Source of the DNA: Candidatus Latescibacterota bacterium
GTDB taxonomy: Bacteria > Krumholzibacteriota > Krumholzibacteriia > WVZY01 > JAKEHA01
NCBI GenBank assembly: GCA_963707635.1
Contig: OY970173.1
Coordinates: 544,001-608,000, forward strand
Direction of reading: 5' to 3'
DNA length: 64,000 nucleotides
Position 1 is the first letter of the stretch. Each line of letters begins with the position of its first letter. The translations under genes and the position numbers were made by a program. Positions 20,267 through 28,408 of the stretch are shown here, piece after piece. The notes under the pieces are model-generated. The model worked only from the letters and a program-made list of their open reading frames with translations, was not told where the DNA came from and did not search any database.

Positions 20267-21658
20267 CTATGCCGACTCCCGCTTCAGCCACACGTAGACG
20301 GGAATGCCGAGCAAGAGTAGCACGAAACCGTACAACACCGTCTCGGGGCCCGATCCGTACGTGGCCCACACCGAATATAGAAATGCGAGCACCGGCACGA
20401 CCGCGCTGCGCCACGTGAGACGCGCCGGCTCACCATTGGCCCCGGCGCGCGACGGGAGGGCTCCCGCTTGCGGGAAACCCGGCGCGCGCGGGCCGCTGTC
20501 ACGAAGCAGCAGCGGCACCAAGGCGGAGAACGCGTACGGCACCAGGTTCGCCAGCGTGGCGAGCAGGATGATGAAGTTGAAGATGCCGATGAGCCCCTTC
20601 GACCCGGAATAATTGAACACGATCAGCGCGGTCATCAGGCACGCGGACGAAATAATCCCGAACGCGGGCGCGCCGAAGCGGTTCACGGAGCCGAAACGGC
20701 GGGGGAACAGGCCCTCGCGCGCGGCGGCGGCCGGCAACTGTCCCGTGAGCAGCATCCATCCGTTGAGCGCGCCGAAACACGACACCACCGCGCCGAATCC
20801 CACCGCGTACGAGGCCCACCCGCCCCAGATCGAGCCGGCCGCGTCGGCGAACGGAGCGCCCGACGTGGCGAGCTTTTCGCGCGACATGATCCCCATGACC
20901 GCGACCGTCCCGAGAATGTAGACCACGGTGGTGAGCAGGGTCCCGATCACGGTGGCGCGCGGAATGGTGCGCTGGGGTTCGTGCACGTCGTCGGCCGGTA
21001 CGGTGGCGGATTCGAGTCCTAGGAACGACCACAGCGTCAGCGTCGCGACGGCCGACACCGCGGCGAACGGGCTCTGCCCCGAGGCGTTGAAGGGCGTGAA
21101 ATGCTCCGGCTTCACCCAGAACAGCCCCACCGTGGCGAGGGCGAGGAGCGGGATCAACTTGACGATCGTGGTCGCGTTCTGCACGCGGCCTGCGGAACGG
21201 ACGCCGCGCACGTTCACGGCCGCCAGCAACCACACGATGCCGATACAGGCCAGCGCCGGCGCCATCCCGCTGCCTCCCAGCGACGGGAAGAACACGCCGG
21301 CGTAGCTCACGCACGCGACCGCGATCGCGGTATTGCCCGACCAGAGCGCGATCCAGTAGCCCCACGCGATCCAGAACGCGGCGAAGTCGCCGAACCCGGC
21401 GCGCGTGTACGCGAATGGGCCGCCCGCTTTCGGGATCATCGTGGCCAGACGCGCGAACACGAGGGCCAGGCAAATCGCGCCCGCGGCCGTGAACACCCAA
21501 CCCACCAGAGAGATTGCGCCGAAGGGGGCGAGCGAGGCGGGCAAGAGAAAGATGCCTGAGCCGATCATGTTGCCGACCACGAGCGCGACGCAGGACCACA
21601 GACCGAGCTTCCTGATTCCTGGCGCGCGCCCGTTGGGGGAGGCGGGACGGGAACTCAC
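20267..21658 (-). CDS. APC-family amino acid permease (ArcD/PotE-like antiporter)
   Basis: [21 protein letters not shown], multiple TM helices; GTG start overlaps the upstream TGA. Confidence 0.88.
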
Positions 21659-23013
21659 TTCAAGCGCACCGTCTGTTTGTGTTCGGGGATCTCCGCCTGC
21701 CAGGCCAGCCGGCGCTCGATGTGTTTGCGAAACGCGTCCGCGGCAGCCGGTTCTCCGTGGGTGAGGAACACGCGTTTGGGCTTTTCCTGCACGCTGCCCA
21801 GCCACTCGATCAGCTCGAGGTAATCGCCGTGCGCCGACATCGAGGTCAACTCCACGACCTCGGCCCGCACCGGCACGAACTCTCCGAAGATCTTCAACTC
21901 CTTGGCGCCATTCTGAAGCGCCTCGCCGCGCGTGCCGGGTGCCTGGAATCCGGCCAGCAGAACCGTATTGCGCGGGTCGGGCAGGAGGGTGCGCAGGTGA
22001 TGAACGACGCGCCCGCCCGTCGCCATGCCGCTGCCCGCGATGATGACCGCCGGCGTGCCGGTCGCGTTGAGCGCGCGCGAGGCCTCTTCGCTCTTGATGA
22101 ATTCGGCCACGCGGAACATCTCGCGGCAGGCCGCTACGCTCAACTTGTGCTCGGTGGAATACTCGCTGTAGATCTCCGTGGCGTCGATGGCGAGCGGGCT
22201 GTTGAGATACACCGGGACGTCCGGGATCGCATGCGCCTTGCGCAGCTCCGAAATGAAATGCAGGAGCGCCTGCGTTCGTCCGACCGCGAACGCGGGAATC
22301 ACCAGTGTGCCGCCGCGCTTCACCGTGCGCGTGATGACGGCCGCCAGCTCCTGGGCCGGGTCGGTCTCGGGGTGGAGGCGGTTGCCGTAGGTGGATTCGC
22401 ACACCAGCGTGTCGGCGTGCGTGATACCCACCGGAGGCTTCATGACCGGGTCGTTCATCCGGCCCACGTCGCCCGAGAAGACAACGCGGTACCCGTCGTG
22501 CACGAACGCGACCCAGGCCGAGCCGAGGATGTGCCCGACGGGGGTGTACCGGAAGGTCACGCCGTCGCCGAGGTCGACGTCGGTGCCGAACGGCCGGGGC
22601 TGGAGCAACTTCACGCACGCTTCCGCGTCTTCACGCGTATAGAGCGGAAGGGCCGGGTCGTGGCGCGCGTACTTGTGCCGCGTCAGGTAGCGGGCCTCTT
22701 CCTCCTGCAGGTGGCCGGAGTCGGGAAGGAGGATTTCGCACAGGGCGCGAGTGCCCGCTGTGCAGTACACCGGACCCTTGTAGCCGCGCTTGACCAGTAC
22801 CGGGAGGTAGCCGGTGTGGTCGATGTGCGCGTGCGTGAGGACAATCGCGTCGATCCTGCCGAGGTCGAACGGCGGGTCCTCCCAGTTGCGCTGGCGGAGG
22901 TTCTTCAAGCCCTGAAACAGGCCGCAGTCGACGAGGATGTTCTTCTTGCCGATCGAGAGCAGGTACTTGGAGCCGGTCACGGTGCCGGCCGCGCCGTAGA
23001 AGGAGATGAACAT
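21655..23013 (-). CDS. Beta-CASP metallo-beta-lactamase ribonuclease (YSH1-like)
   Basis: GAAGTVTGS, THAHIDH, GHILGS, ESTYGNR, SGMATGGR, SAHGD, THGE. Confidence 0.93.
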   Translation of the reverse strand: MFISFYGAAGTVTGSKYLLSIGKKNILVDCGLFQGLKNLRQRNWEDPPFDLGRIDAIVLTHAHIDHTGYLPVLVKRGYKGPVYCTAGTRALCEILLPDSGHLQEEEARYLTRHKYARHDPALPLYTREDAEACVKLLQPRPFGTDVDLGDGVTFRYTPVGHILGSAWVAFVHDGYRVVFSGDVGRMNDPVMKPPVGITHADTLVCESTYGNRLHPETDPAQELAAVITRTVKRGGTLVIPAFAVGRTQALLHFISELRKAHAIPDVPVYLNSPLAIDATEIYSEYSTEHKLSVAACREMFRVAEFIKSEEASRALNATGTPAVIIAGSGMATGGRVVHHLRTLLPDPRNTVLLAGFQAPGTRGEALQNGAKELKIFGEFVPVRAEVVELTSMSAHGDYLELIEWLGSVQEKPKRVFLTHGEPAAADAFRKHIERRLAWQAEIPEHKQTVRLK

Positions 23014-23127: not shown

Positions 23128-25746
23128 ATGGCGAAACGAATCCTGACGACCGCGTTGCTCCTGTCGGCGGTTGTTGCGCAGCCGCCGACGGCCCGCGCGG
23201 CGAGCTTCGAGTCGATCCCGTCGTACTACCAGCAGCTCGACTTCAATCTGACCGGACCGACGAGCATGCCCGAAGCGGTGGGCGGCTACGCCAACCCCGC
23301 CGTGTATTCGCTGATGCCGGGCGCCGAGGCGGAGTATTACTGGTCGAGTTTCGACTCCGACGAGTTTCAGGGCGTGGACCGCTGGGGTCTCTTCCTCGGA
23401 CTCAAGCATCTCGGATTCGGTGTGACGCACACCCAGGCCCCGTTCTCGACCGGCGAGGCGAGCGTCACCGACTACCGGATTGGACTGGGTGGCGGGTCGC
23501 GCGCGTTCACCTTCGGCCTGGGGTACGGCTGGTCGGGCGGCGACGAGAGCGCGTTCGGGCGCGAGGACTTGATGCAGGTCGGGTTCGGGTATCGCCCGGG
23601 GCGGTACCTGTCGCTGGGCGGTGTCTGGGACTTCGGCATGCAGAGCGGTGACCGCCGCGAGCTCTACGACCTGGGCGTGCGCCCGCTCGGCGACCAGCGC
23701 CTGACCGTATTCGGTGACGTCGAGCTTACGAGCGTCGGCGGCGACTATCAGGACCACCCGCCGTACAGCGTTGGGGCGATGGTGGAGATTCCCGCCGGTC
23801 TGAAGCTCATCGGACGTTACTACGACGACAACCTGGTCGCCGACGAAGGCTTCAGCGTGGCCCTCGCGTACACGTTTGGCGGCGGGTTCGGGCAGGGCGT
23901 GGCGCGGGGCTCGGCGGCGGTCCGCTTCGATTCGGACAACAACCACGCCTACACCAACTGGGGTGTGCGCCTCGGCTTCCCCGAACGATCGAACATGCTC
24001 AAGCCGCTCAACCGCCACAGCGGCTACTTGGACCTGCGCGTCGGGGGCCAGGTCGCCTACACCACCTATCGCTTCCTCGACACGCGCCAGACGCTGCGCG
24101 AGATCATTTCCAACCTCGAGGCCGCGCGCACCGACGACCGCATCAGCGGCGTGGCCTTGAACCTCTCGGGCGCGAAACTTTCGCGCGGCACGGCGTGGGA
24201 GATCCGGCACAAGCTCGAGGAGCTGCGCGCGAGCGGGAAGAAGGTCGTCGTCTACATCGATGAAGCGGGCACCGCGACCTACTACGTCGCCAGCGTGGCG
24301 GATCGCGTGTTCATGGACCCCGAAGGGCTCCTGATTCTGCCGGGCTACGTCATGGGAAGAACGTACATCGCCAACATGCTCGAGAAGCTGGGCGTGGGTG
24401 TGGAGGAGTGGCGGTTCCTCAAGTACAAGAGCGCGATGGAGGCGCTCGTGCGCCACGAGATGAGCGATGCCGACCGCGAGCAGCGCCAGGCGCTGGTCGA
24501 TCAGGCGTACACGACGCTGCGCGACGACGTCGCGAAGAGCCGCAACGTGACGCCCGAAACCGTCGATCGCTGGATCGACGACGTGACGATATTCACAGCG
24601 CAGACGGCGGTCGACGAGAAGCTCGTCGATGTGCTGGGGCGGTGGGAGGACGTCAAGGACGACGTGAAGAAGACGGAAGGGCGCCGGCAACGTTTCGTCG
24701 GATCGGGAGAGCTGGAGGACAACTGGTATCCGTCGAAGCAATGGGGCCCGCGGCCGGAGGTGGCGGTCGTGTACGCGATCGGCCCGTGCGCGATGGACGA
24801 AGGCATCAACGCTCGCCGGCTGGAGAAGACGCTGCGCCGCCTGCGCGACGACCGCGGCGTCAAGGCGGTGGTGCTGCGGGTCGACTCGCCCGGCGGGAGC
24901 GCTCTCGCCTCCGATGTGGTTGCGGGGCAATTGAAGAAGATCATGGCGAAGAAGCCGGTGGTGGTGTCGCAGGGCGACGTGGCCGCCTCGGGCGGATACT
25001 GGCTTTCGATGTGCTCGCACCAGATCGTGGCGCAGCCGACCACCATCACGGGTTCGATCGGCGTCATCGCAGGCTGGGTGTGGGACAAGGGGTTGGGCGA
25101 GAAGGTCGGAATGGAGGGGGACTTCGTGAAGCGCGGCGAGCACGCGGATCTGTTTTTCTCGCTGCGGGTGCCGTTCTTTCCCGCGGCGATTCCGCACCGC
25201 GCCGCGAACAGCGAGGAACGCGACCGCGTGCTGGCCAGCATGAAGTCGCTCTACGCAGGTTTCGTCGGCGCCGTATCGAAGCATCGCAAGCTCCCGACCG
25301 AGCGGGTGGAAGCGGTGGCGCAGGGGCGCGTGTGGACCGGTGTGGCGGCCAAGGAGAACGGACTAGTGGACCGGATCGGCGGCCTCGAAGACGCCATCGC
25401 GCTCGCGCGCGAACTGGCCAAGATCGGCCCCGACGACGAAGTCGACGTGGTCGACTATTCGCCCCGTGGGCTGTTTCGATTCGACGTGCCCACGCCGTCG
25501 ATCAACGCCCCGTTTGCGAGCATCGGGGCACTGGCGTCGTGGGATGCGTTCGCGTCCGCCATGTTGCCGTGGGTGTTCGACGAGCCGGACGCAGATGCGG
25601 ACACGCAGGAATATCTTCGCGACTACGACTTGATGTACCTGAACCAGTTGGTGCAGAACGGCGGGCGCGCGTTGTGTCTGCTGCCGCCGGAGTATATTCC
25701 GCGCGACGAGTCGACCATACGAAATGCCACGTTGCCGGATCGGTGA
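23128..25746 (+). CDS. sppA: Signal peptide peptidase SppA (S49) with a large N-terminal beta-rich domain
   Basis: [33 protein letters not shown]. Confidence 0.88.
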
Positions 25747-25904
25747 TCCGCGACTATATTTCAGTGCCGACCGCGCGAGCGGTCGGGTCATGCAAGGGTG
25801 GGGGTCCGATGGCCGAAAGGCCGTCGGGTAGGCCTCCAAGTCGGCGCGCGCCATGACGCGAGTTGTGGTTGCGCGCCGCTTTGCGTTTGAACCGGAGGAG
25901 CGGA

Positions 25905-26201
25905 ATGGAGACTCACAAGCGGTCGATGGTCAAATCCATCACCTGGCGTATCATCGGCGTCTTCCTGCTGGGCGGCATCGCGTACAGCGTCACCAGGAAC
26001 TGGAAGGAGATGTCGATCATCACCATCCTCTTCCACAGCATTCGCATGGTGCTTTACTACTTCCACGAGCGCATCTGGCTCCGGGTGAAGTGGGGGAAAA
26101 TCCTGCATCCATTGGCGGAGATCGAGGTCAACGGCAAGCTGACCCCCGAAGATCTGGATGAAATCCGCGCGCGGCTGCGCGCGATGGGCTACCTGGAGTG
26201 A
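25905..26201 (+). CDS. DUF2061-like small membrane protein
   Basis: GGAGG RBS; METHKRSMVKSITWR...YYFHERIW. Confidence 0.8.
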   Translation: METHKRSMVKSITWRIIGVFLLGGIAYSVTRNWKEMSIITILFHSIRMVLYYFHERIWLRVKWGKILHPLAEIEVNGKLTPEDLDEIRARLRAMGYLE

Positions 26202-26224
26202 GGCCGAGCGCCCTGCAGCTGGAA

Positions 26225-26730
26225 ACAGAAAAGGGACCTGCCGGAGGGCAAGCGGTCCCTTTTCTCCCGCTATGGCGATGTTGCCGTAGCTCGGTGCGCG
26301 CCGATCTTTTCGACTGGGGTGCCCGCACAGCCTCTCTGGAGAGAATGTCGAAAACGACCGGCGCGCGTTAGACTGTCTCGCAAATGAATCCCTCCCCCAA
26401 GAGGAACCCACGAGTTCGAGCCTTCCTACTGCGCTAACGCCGCGCTCACCACCACGACCCGTCGGTTCGCACCGCGTTACCGAACGATTCGGTCGGCTCG
26501 ATTCTGTCGCCTTCGCGGTGTGCGATGGACCTCCTTTCGCCAAGCCCGCGCTTCGACGCGAGGCTAACGCTCCGGGTGTCGATGGCGCGTCGAACTCACT
26601 CGCGCCGAAGCGCGTACCCTGCCCCTGGCGTGATTCCGTAGAATCCCGTCGCGTTGCGCCTCGATCATTCGTCTGGATGCCCTGCACGGCGGTGCGCGTC
26701 GAAGCGGAACGGCGCTGCAATCCTAGCCCC
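26225..26730 (-). ncRNA. Candidate large (~500 nt) structured non-coding RNA of unrecognised class
   Basis: Own promoter and terminator; no credible ORF; C(UUCG)G and C(UACG)G tetraloop hairpins; 12-bp and ~19-bp long-range helices. Confidence 0.7.
26227..26265. terminator. Bidirectional intrinsic terminator
   Basis: AGAAAAGGGACC...GGTCCCTTTTCT inverted repeat giving a CUUUUCU tail on both strands. Confidence 0.8.
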
Positions 26731-26736
26731 GCACAT

Positions 26737-26764
26737 AAACTATCCAGTAAACGCCAGTTGTCAA
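26737..26764 (-). promoter_or_regulatory. Sigma70-type promoter TTGACA-16 nt-TAGTTT
   Basis: Consensus -35 at 26764-26759 and -10 at 26742-26737, pointing into the non-coding region. Confidence 0.7.
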
Positions 26765-26829
26765 GGGGAGGGACGAAGATTCTTGCGAGACGCTGGTGAA
26801 TCGACTCACTAGCTGTTCACGGGGAGCGT

Positions 26830-26923
26830 GCAGGCGATATATCGGACTCCGCGCTCATGCGCTCGCGCGCACATGTTGTACGCGCGACTCGCGAAATCGC
26901 GCTTCGCCCGACATATCGCCTGC
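26830..26923. repeat. REP/REPIN-like element A, copy 1
   Basis: Terminal IR GCAGGCGATATATCGG...CCGACATATCGCCTGC; near-identical copy at 37447-37540. Confidence 0.8.
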
Positions 26924-26927
26924 CTGA

Positions 26928-27019
26928 GGGTGGGATGCACTCCCTCGCACCGCCAATCCGCAGTCGCGCATTTCAACATGTGCGCGGGAGGACGGCGGTA
27001 GAGGGAGTGCATCCCACCC
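26928..27019. repeat. REP/REPIN-like element B
   Basis: Perfect 19-bp IR GGGTGGGATGCACTCCCTC / GAGGGAGTGCATCCCACCC; degenerate half copy near 37415-37433. Confidence 0.75.
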
Positions 27020-27028
27020 CGCAGAATG

Positions 27029-28408
27029 TCAGCGGCCTGGCAGGAACGTAACTTCGAACAGCTTCGAGCGCGCCAGACGCGACTTCACGATCGCGCGGAA
27101 CTGTTCCGGCGTGAGGGCATTGACCTCGGCGACGAATTCGTCGGTGGTCCGGCCCTCGCGCAGCATGTGCCGCATGCCGATGTTCAACGCCTCCTGGCCT
27201 ATCACCTGGTGGTGGGCCATTGGATAGTCGGGCGCGTCCGGTTTGAGCATGGTCGTGGACATGAAGCTGGTGGCGTTCGCCTTGATGCTTTCGACTCGCG
27301 AGTCTTCCTCCAGCAGCTTGATCGCGCCCTCCAGGTGCTGAAGGAGCAGCGAACCCACTTCAGCGACGTCGCGGCCGGTTGGCTGGGCGTAGAGGAAGAA
27401 CGGCATCTCTCCCACGCGATAAACCTGGTTCGTGCAGTAGATGACCTGGTTGCCGCTGTAGAGCGCCGGTGACGAATTCATGTACTGATTCAAGAACGAG
27501 CCGAACAGGGAAAGGACCAGGCGCTCGCGGTAGTCGTCGTAGGGGCCGGGCGCGATGTAATAGATCGCGCTCGCGCTCACGTCCCAGGTGGCGTGGAGGT
27601 CGCGCTCGAGCCGCGGAACCCGCACGGGCGGCGCCGGGCGGCGCGGAATCGATTCGAGATGCTTGCGCACCAGCGCCTCGGCATCCGCTTTTTTGAAGTC
27701 GCCGACGATGACGATCACCATGTCATCCGGCCGGAAGTACTCCAGCTGGAACTTCTGCGCTTCCGGTATCGTCAGGCGACGGGTGCCTTCGCGGATGTCG
27801 ACGTGCATCTGACCGAAGTTCATGGCCTGGTTCAGCGCCATCATCGCGAACTTGGTGAGCGCGAGCTTGGGGGTGGAGATGGTCTGGTCGATTTCACTGA
27901 TCACCTTGTCCTGTTCGCGCTTCAGAATCTTGTCCTCGCACGTCATGCCCCCGAGCCGCGCAGCCTCGACGCGCAGGGCGTCCTCGAAGTGGTTCCCCCT
28001 CACGATGTAGTCGAAATGGATGAAATCGCCGAGTGTCTCCGCGTTGGCCATGCCGCGGTCGGTGCGCAGGAGGTTCCACGCTTCCTCGGTGCCGAAGGGG
28101 CCGCTCGCGCAGTAGATGGTAAGGTGCTCGGTCAGGTGCGATAACTGGGGCCGGCCCCTGGGTTCGTCCATGAAACCCACCGGGTAGAGCGTCTCGATCG
28201 CGATCTGATTGCTGGTGTGCTCCTCCTGCAGGTAAACCGTGATGCCGTTGGACAGCGCGAACGAGGACAAATCCGACATATCGCGCTTGAACGACTCCAG
28301 GTCCGCGCGCTCGAACTTCTCCGCCTCCTGCTCGTCCTTCTGGCAGGAGAGGGTCGCCGGAATGATGGCGGCGGCCAGCAGGGCGGCGGCCACAGGAGTA
28401 ACTCGCAT
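27029..28408 (-). CDS. M16 (insulinase/pitrilysin) family peptidase lipoprotein
   Basis: Lipobox TLSC; LSNGITVYL; inverted zinc motif HLTEH; YFRPDDMVIVIVGDF. Confidence 0.85.
   Translation of the reverse strand: MRVTPVAAALLAAAIIPATLSCQKDEQEAEKFERADLESFKRDMSDLSSFALSNGITVYLQEEHTSNQIAIETLYPVGFMDEPRGRPQLSHLTEHLTIYCASGPFGTEEAWNLLRTDRGMANAETLGDFIHFDYIVRGNHFEDALRVEAARLGGMTCEDKILKREQDKVISEIDQTISTPKLALTKFAMMALNQAMNFGQMHVDIREGTRRLTIPEAQKFQLEYFRPDDMVIVIVGDFKKADAEALVRKHLESIPRRPAPPVRVPRLERDLHATWDVSASAIYYIAPGPYDDYRERLVLSLFGSFLNQYMNSSPALYSGNQVIYCTNQVYRVGEMPFFLYAQPTGRDVAEVGSLLLQHLEGAIKLLEEDSRVESIKANATSFMSTTMLKPDAPDYPMAHHQVIGQEALNIGMRHMLREGRTTDEFVAEVNALTPEQFRAIVKSRLARSKLFEVTFLPGR

Follow-up and report, generated by a model that had tools for sequence, protein, structure and literature searches.

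The minus strand of the analysed window (a stretch of 64,000 nucleotides from genome G000, which is 3.2 Mb in size, 96% complete and belongs to genus g1 in family f1 of Ca. Krumholzibacteriia) specifies, from 26731 to 26227, a non-coding RNA that is present in single copy and restricted to one family of Ca. Krumholzibacteriia, uncultured bacteria of soil and sediment. This RNA, about 505 nt in length with predicted ends, was recognized from homologues, a covariance model and contigs in RNA libraries. Its conservation, covarying fold, lack of a conserved frame, presence in RNA libraries and Shine-Dalgarno (SD) sequence complementary to 16S rRNA were established, as were its co-occurrence and complementarity with a second, smaller RNA. 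To judge from sequence comparisons, the two RNAs appear to form a real and apparently undescribed system of narrow taxonomic range, for which the mechanism given below is offered as a proposal.

Homologues were identified in several ways. BLAST of 61 related genomes gave matches in 20 (12 of the 16 in the genus), several at chance level, while full-length alignments were obtained with 11 other members of the genus, in which the RNA lay between an M16 peptidase gene on one side and sppA or a DUF2061 gene on the other. An exact pattern for hairpin P6 (see below) located 23 metagenome loci. After removal of 4 identical, 4 near-identical and 2 truncated sequences, the alignment consisted of 25 sequences (mean column identity, 59%) with rows that were 47–94% alike. 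With a covariance model built from the 3' part, matches were obtained in 18 of the 36 genomes of the order, among them real ones in three further genera (G021, G019, G022 and G017; E from 3e-16 to 3e-8) and weak ones in G010 and G027; homologues of the long RNA span four genera of one family. Among 151 genomes outside the family, the best E values of a sequence-only model (R2) were 0.004–0.01, in 4 genomes, and models R1 and R3 gave nothing significant beside sppA in 8 loci of family f2. Two exact patterns had no match in viral contigs, and BLAST against phages and plasmids gave none to the long RNA. Relatives with compensatory base changes, which the preliminary description of this DNA had proposed as a check, were thus found, and the codon-like conservation that it had named as contrary evidence was not, as no position-conserved ORF of at least 20 codons occurred on either strand of 29 RNAs. 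Indels of all lengths were noted in the alignment.

The annotated neighbours in the window were sppA, DUF2061, the M16 peptidase gene and a beta-CASP nuclease gene. The last of these (a metallo-beta-lactamase nuclease gene at 21655–23013, minus strand) was divergent from sppA and 3 kb from both RNAs. The DUF2061 gene (25863–26201, plus strand, from gene annotation) lies between the RNAs in some members of the genus and is not a fixed part of the module. A replication origin at the locus was rejected, the skew minimum being at 458 kb and the locus at 570 kb.

Twenty-four RNA runs from 15 studies held part of the stretch (small shares, 0.07–0.16), and near-identical contigs confined to the long RNA were present in seven of the eight metatranscriptomes examined, in a comparison of RNA runs alone, with contigs that reveal neither strand, ends, level nor absence. 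X1, X3, X4 and X8 each gave a single contig of 326–404 nt, with 1–8 other letters, that aligned end to end within 26271–26695, and the rest of the region from 24800 to 28200 was represented in these runs by short partial pieces of 21–129 nt only. The same pattern was seen across 20 kb in X2, X12 and X16; in X14, the body of the long RNA was not among the matches listed. Overall, the contigs fell within 26271–26705. The contigs of X1 and X2 were identical, so that these two runs may share one data set and the results represent at most six independent ones. The small RNA was not seen in the eight runs, and full-length cover was found neither for it nor for the flanking genes, which for contigs does not amount to absence; no joints inside the long RNA were noted in contigs of the examined runs.

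The long RNA is assigned to the minus strand, as its promoter, terminator and fold suggest. The sigma-70-type promoter (26764–26737, minus strand) that the preliminary description had pointed out was found in place, with −35 and −10 boxes separated by a 16-nt spacer, and proved to be conserved across the family. Its −10 box was a poor match to the consensus, and the promoter was absent from the list of a consensus promoter scan; it was recovered by pattern and matrix searches, and has a conserved spacer motif (about 26753–26735) that occurs once per genome. The promoter pattern was present once each in 17 of 208 genomes of the phylum, all of family f1 (reversed control, 0), and the matrix gave a top site in G000 with a score of 38.8 and a second site with a score of 20.2. 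The second site (C1:202465, minus strand), possibly a chance match, was 5' of the gene for a small heat-shock protein, after which comes a gene resembling that of a ribosome hibernation factor, both names being our own judgement from the translations. A LexA or other regulon for the motif was rejected in view of the single strong site and the lack of a similar motif upstream of lexA or recA. The bidirectional intrinsic terminator reported earlier at 26265–26227 (minus strand) was likewise present, was recovered by terminator search and was backed by homologues (arm swap, 0/20000). The 511-nt minus strand folded at −239 kcal/mol with a z-score of −3.11 (100 shuffles), compared with a z-score of −1.98 for the plus strand. 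The UNCG tetraloops, also cited earlier in favour of this strand, make a weak argument because the loop of the 26645–26632 hairpin varies among homologues.

A REP-like dispersed repeat (a 190-nt palindrome at 26830–27020) was present outside the RNA, in the interval that separates the promoter from the M16 peptidase gene; it gave 46 BLAST lines in G000 and attracted loose-ended RNA contigs. In G007 (L049), a transposase-like insert of approximately 1.2 kb occurred in the same interval, and the promoter and RNA were intact.

The order of elements in the long RNA, from 5' to 3', was P1, P2, P3, SD, P4 (enclosing P5, P6 and P7) and terminator, all given here as minus-strand coordinates. RNAalifold predicted 53 pairs, 18 of them with two-sided change. 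In an 83-pair model, 83.8% of cells were paired, and 58 cells showed two-sided change compared with 34.0 ± 4.5 in shuffled alignments (0/500). Slid controls of this model were 40–51% paired; a slide of −1 gave 71 cells with two-sided change, so that this count alone is not proof. Cognate and swapped arms were also compared in a test that is free of alignment (13–16 representatives). P1 (26706–26657; helix 26706–26699/26664–26657 with an A/C-rich loop) was 89.6% paired with two-sided change in 3 pairs, and cognate arms were favoured (93/20000). P3 (26614–26547), a 16-bp helix of 26614–26599 with 26562–26547, was 94.9% paired with two-sided change in 4 pairs (inner arms, 1/20000), and its loop carried a conserved 9-nt motif (26580–26572). 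P4 (26518–26507/26278–26267), which closes the 3' domain, was found in individual sequences, with an arm-swap result that was not significant (1322/20000). P5 (26501–26416), an arm with an internal loop (26490–26488, 26430–26427) that we take to be loop-E-like, gave arm-swap results of 0/20000 for both outer and inner arms. P6 (26411–26384), recognized from the alignment, was almost invariant in the genus, in part by construction because some rows had been selected by the P6 motif. P7 (26366–26296) was 95.6% paired with two-sided change in 4 pairs (inner arms, 0/20000) and was wholly deleted in 2 of 25 rows. The motif in its loop (26332–26316), the predicted pairing site of the small RNA, was the most deeply conserved sequence, being the same in genera g1, g2, g4 and g6.

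All of the inverted repeats named in the preliminary description were located in the window. The 7-bp helix 26501–26495/26422–26416 and the long helix 26366–26347/26314–26296 that it had proposed correspond to the outer arms of P5 and to P7, and are backed by homologues. Its 12-bp long-range helix (26706–26695/26560–26549) showed one two-sided change (384/500 shuffles were as high) and competes with the local helix P3, while its UUCG hairpin (26614–26601) was 97.5% paired yet without two-sided change and is the 5' strand of P3. Both draw on strands of the better supported P1 and P3. The 26645–26632 hairpin was retained as P2 on the basis of per-sequence duplexes (poorly aligned, 45.8% paired), without the constancy of its UNCG loop, which differs in sequence between homologues; the arm-swap mean of P2 was invalid (one empty arm) and was left out of the evidence. 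The suggested pairing of 5' and 3' ends was not borne out, the 5' end being variable or missing in homologues. The earlier 5' fold is wrong; the RNA itself is real. Whole domains were cleanly deleted in some sequences (L006 and L072 have no P7, and L013 and L066 have lost most of the 5' domain), and no pseudoknot covariation was found in the long RNA. In distant genera (L141, L143, L144 and L157), an additional hairpin domain with a conserved pyrimidine-rich loop was present between P7 and the terminator; this domain was absent from g1.

An extended SD (26538–26529, minus strand) with no AUG behind it was evident in the long RNA as a 10/10 Watson-Crick complement of the 16S 3' end of G000 itself. 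Seven of its first nine positions were invariant in 25 rows, and AUG was absent within 15 nt behind it in 26 of 26 sequences; GUG or UUG occurred at +1 in two sequences and at +12 in one. By comparison, the SD 8-mer had 25 genomic sites in G000, with a start codon 3–11 nt behind in 15. Exceptions were G017, which lacked the 9-mer, and G021, in which the SD was folded into P4. Relative to shuffled rRNA, the duplex energy of the SD was no outlier (21/150), and the weight of the match derives from its position at the 16S 3' end and not from this energy. Three-codon and start-stop mini-frames could be read by eye behind the SD in G019/G022 and G021.

In G020, the same promoter (one mismatch) lay opposite sppA as elsewhere; behind it came a leader of 125 nt, an SD and the gene for a 194-aa lipoprotein with no Pfam family. 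Relatives of this lipoprotein were present in 48 of 208 genomes of the phylum, with three copies in G020; with this query, none were found in 17 genomes of the genus or in g4 and g6. The family was present in G017 and, again with this query, missing from the other genera that hold the RNA. Relatives elsewhere had different promoters, which we read by eye as presumably sigma-54. Hidden homology between the long RNA and the G020 lipoprotein was rejected (best E, 0.11). In a tree built from 27 SppA rows, in which family f2 served as outgroup, G020 was placed beside g1 within the holders of the RNA (90/87 support, not starred). This placement suggests that a paralogue was probably captured, in this single case, behind a working ribosome site with replacement of the 3' domain.

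Contrary to the preliminary description, the long RNA is not truly stand-alone, because a small partner RNA converges on it; that description was right about a large structured non-coding RNA and missed both this partner and the start-less SD. The small RNA (25766–25889, plus strand, about 120 nt), identified from homologues and its own terminator, is preceded by a −10 box (25755–25760, plus strand; promoter search and comparison with relatives). By comparison of homologues, it consists of a GNRA hairpin (25769–25784), a conserved single-stranded core (25788–25798), a second hairpin and the terminator. The two RNAs were 338 nt apart in G000 and overlapped only at the terminator in g4 and g6; a conserved block of short length, equipped with a −10 box, was noted on the opposite strand just past the shared terminator in G019, G022 and G021. 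Homologues of the small RNA were present across the genus whether DUF2061 was present or absent, and a role as cis leader of DUF2061 was rejected since the small RNA persists where that gene is absent. Model R3 of the small RNA matched 17 of 36 genomes of the order (16 of 22 in family f1, 0 of 13 in f2). It was not found in G020 (96% complete) and G018 (92% complete), both of which also lacked the 3' domain and P7 motif, or in G005, G006, G010 and G014 (81–91% complete).

A segment of the small RNA (25800–25814, plus strand) was complementary to the P7 loop (−30.9 kcal/mol; 0/500 shuffles as low), a site about 200 nt 3' of the SD. With pairing windows that were picked after the match had been noticed by eye, a 24-nt segment paired with its cognate P7 loop in all 11 genomes retaining the motif (−27.0 to −36.4 kcal/mol; 0–25/500 shuffles) and in 0 of 5 with motif-less loops (−11.3 to −16.3 kcal/mol; 77–464/500), one further genome being without P7. 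Small RNAs from motif-less genomes also paired less with motif loops (Mann-Whitney p 0.002, for kin that are not independent). The small RNA of G017 was real (E 1.4e-4 for the locus), and it still had 12 bp of complementarity to the P7 loop across the approximately 3.5 kb between the RNAs. An unbiased test with whole RNAs detected pairing at no more than 2/60 shuffles in only 5 of 17 pairs, G000 (49/60) not among them, and cognate pairs were no better than swapped pairs (5708/20000; the whole-RNA version was also not significant). The gain from co-folding was small where the RNAs do not overlap (−4.8 to −10.0 kcal/mol), since in genus g1 the small RNA itself already pairs the segment. Six of the 17 genomes compared had lost P7 or its motif, and P7 is therefore dispensable. 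In one clade of the genus (L008, L013, L063, L070, L071, L077 and L079), the P7 loop motif was replaced by a sequence resembling the small RNA of g4 and g6, and the small RNA of this clade had lost the complementary segment.

The reading preferred here, tentatively and at somewhat less than an even chance, is a ribosome-docking RNA with an antisense off-switch, in a layout like that of par minus the toxin gene. The SD would lie single-stranded between a 5' domain (P1–P3) and the 3' domain (P5–P7) closed by P4, so that a 30S subunit could bind the SD, would meet no start codon and then P4 about 7–12 nt further on, and might be held without initiating. Subunits held in this way could be stored or throttled in slow-growing cells, and the RNA could be protected. 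Binding of the small RNA to the P7 loop would refold the long RNA or mark it for decay, as an antitoxin RNA acts on a toxin message, the whole module then being an RNA-only regulator with its antidote.

On the account given in PMC7472228, par (Fst; RNA I-RNA II) has convergent promoters, a long structured and a short RNA, a repeat that provides complementarity, and chromosomal representatives. The likeness to par lies in a long and a short RNA that converge, in complementarity arising from a repeat read in opposite directions, in the chromosomal location and, in g4 and g6, in a shared bidirectional terminator. Differences are that par has a toxin ORF behind its SD where the long RNA has neither AUG nor conserved ORF, that the antisense RNA of par covers the translation start whereas pairing here is predicted well 3' of the SD, and that genes can lie between the two RNAs of the present system. 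RNA I of par is also about half the length of the long RNA. The start-less SD of the long RNA, with its complementarity to the 3' end of 16S rRNA, has a parallel in the STAB-SD of cry3A mRNA, described in PMC4113751 as binding the 16S end or 30S subunit without directing initiation. Unlike the site in the long RNA, which no ORF follows, STAB-SD acts as a barrier to RNase J on the 5' side of a coding region. Both components of type VIII toxin-antitoxin systems are RNA and, as outlined in PMC8610362 and PMC10097628, CreT, which possibly contacts rRNA, relies on an SD. In contrast with the long RNA, which has neither, CreT of Acinetobacter requires a start codon and mini-ORF in addition to the SD, as reported in PMC10097628. 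CreTA modules also have a link to a CRISPR-Cas locus and an antitoxin with repeat-like sequences on its flanks; the neighbours annotated around the present RNAs are those listed above. SdsR and RyeA differ from the present RNAs in that they overlap along their bodies. Compared with type VIII modules, the long RNA is much larger and multi-domain. If it were toxic, the locus would be a form of type VIII system.

A structural scaffold of the OLE, ROOL or GOLLD sort, which would bind proteins or itself, is possible though doubtful; the SD would then stabilize the RNA in the manner of STAB-SD or make a tertiary contact, and the small RNA would be a second subunit or tune the level of the first. A scaffold would agree with the size, the multi-domain fold, the loop-E-like motif and the presence of several loops that do not vary, as well as with the ease with which the RNA was recovered from RNA libraries. 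OLE, ROOL and GOLLD resemble the long RNA in size class, multi-domain fold and apparent abundance, and form RNA-only homo-oligomers through kissing loops and A-minor contacts (as summarized in PMC12286853). Membership in these families, which the preliminary description had raised, was not borne out by any Rfam, viral, phage or plasmid match. ROOL and GOLLD occur in phages or prophages near tRNA islands, whereas the long RNA had no phage match and the 64-kb window contained no tRNA genes. The long RNA further differs from all three in its restriction to one bacterial family, its antisense partner, the lack of a sequence or model match and its tolerance of whole-domain loss, the last of these being unlike a tight cage. 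The lack of pseudoknot covariation also argues against a scaffold, and the known use of a STAB-SD is missing, as no RNase J was found over cut-off in G000 (96% complete).

The small RNA might instead be the effector, acting in trans on mRNAs through its single-stranded core, with the long RNA as an abundant sponge or reservoir, a reading that is unlikely. In its favour, the core at 25788–25798 was conserved even where the P7 motif was lost, so that the small RNA would have a job of its own, and complementarity does not say which RNA controls which. Against it, the conserved SD, the 5' domain and the P5/P6 domains are left unexplained, and G005 has kept the long RNA and lost the small one. The lack of a CsrA match in G000 weakened a sponge of the CsrB/RsmZ type, as the lack of RNase J over cut-off weakened the STAB-SD reading above.

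A type I toxin-antitoxin system, or an mRNA for a short peptide from a non-standard start codon or decayed gene, is distinctly unlikely. The convergent long and short RNAs with their terminator shared in g4 and g6, a complementary repeat on both sides, the SD and the mini-frames seen by eye behind it would suit such a system, whereas the 29 RNAs without a position-conserved ORF, the indels of all lengths, the lack of a hydrophobic frame and a structure still under selection do not.

Very unlikely, with marginal support from comparison with rRNA, is that the long RNA grips the small subunit twice (at the anti-SD tail and, by way of its P7 loop, at helix 28) as an assembly chaperone like U3 or a ribosome-silencing RNA, with the small RNA neutralizing it by mimicry of the 16S segment. 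Among 10 motifs compared with G000 rRNA, only the P7 loop stood out (16S 943–965; −35.1 kcal/mol, 1/150 shuffles), and the match persisted, in a post hoc comparison, in three distant genera. We take 16S 943–965 to form the 5' side of helix 28, adjacent to the central pseudoknot; the equivalent rRNA region of eukaryotes is bound by U3 snoRNA. The small RNA was identical to 16S 947–959 over 10–13 nt in 5 of 17 homologues, and not in G000. Two of 45 sliding windows compared with rRNA had z-scores below −3, neither in conserved motifs. A match of P6 to 23S helix 89 (13 bp, 2 G-U) was rejected as chance (68/150), being lost in variants and distant genera.

A ribozyme, suggested earlier and compatible with the size and loop-E-like motif, or a relic of a self-splicing intron is most improbable, as no catalytic core was seen, no intron or ribozyme model matched at E up to 10 in the window or up to 1 in 7 homologous loci, and the RNA is single copy with its own promoter and terminator, no mobile context and no joints in RNA contigs.

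The unrecognized class of the long RNA was upheld by Rfam 15, which includes raiA, HEARO and riboswitches besides the families named above and gave no match at gathering threshold in the window; when E values as high as 10 were allowed, nothing appeared apart from miRNA models on the upstream palindromic repeat and weak chance matches. In the 7 homologous loci, only terminator-driven matches below threshold appeared, and the small RNA had none. In agreement with the earlier account, the long RNA was not tmRNA, RNase P, 6S or SRP RNA, each of which was found over cut-off elsewhere in G000. Both the RNA family and the two-RNA layout are apparently new in that they fail the defining tests of every family considered. 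No paper on non-coding RNA of Krumholzibacteria was found in a literature search whose scope left outside the supplements of RNA-motif surveys and most subscription journals, which could list the motif. Large structured bacterial RNAs are few and mostly of no known job, and the present one offers handles that others lack, i.e., a conserved start-less ribosome-binding site, a partner RNA for which the site of pairing is predicted, and variants in which nature has deleted domains or captured a gene. The preferred docking mechanism, if true, would mean that bacteria own an RNA-only means, controlled by an antisense RNA, of occupying ribosomal subunits or keeping them in store.

Several other features were noted in these genomes. 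On contig C363 of G017 (L164, L157 and L204), the order was lipoprotein gene, Ser/Thr kinase gene, long RNA, sigma-54 activator-like gene, small RNA and sppA. ARAGORN placed in G000 (C1:1564292–1564379) a tRNA-Ala of 88 nt whose anticodon, AGC, is unusual in bacteria; this call is possibly false. The only 23S rRNA gene of G000 (C1:1536461–1540103; L086) was 3643 nt in length compared with a model of 2925 positions and contained coding-like sequence, presumably the frame of a homing endonuclease inside a group I intron.
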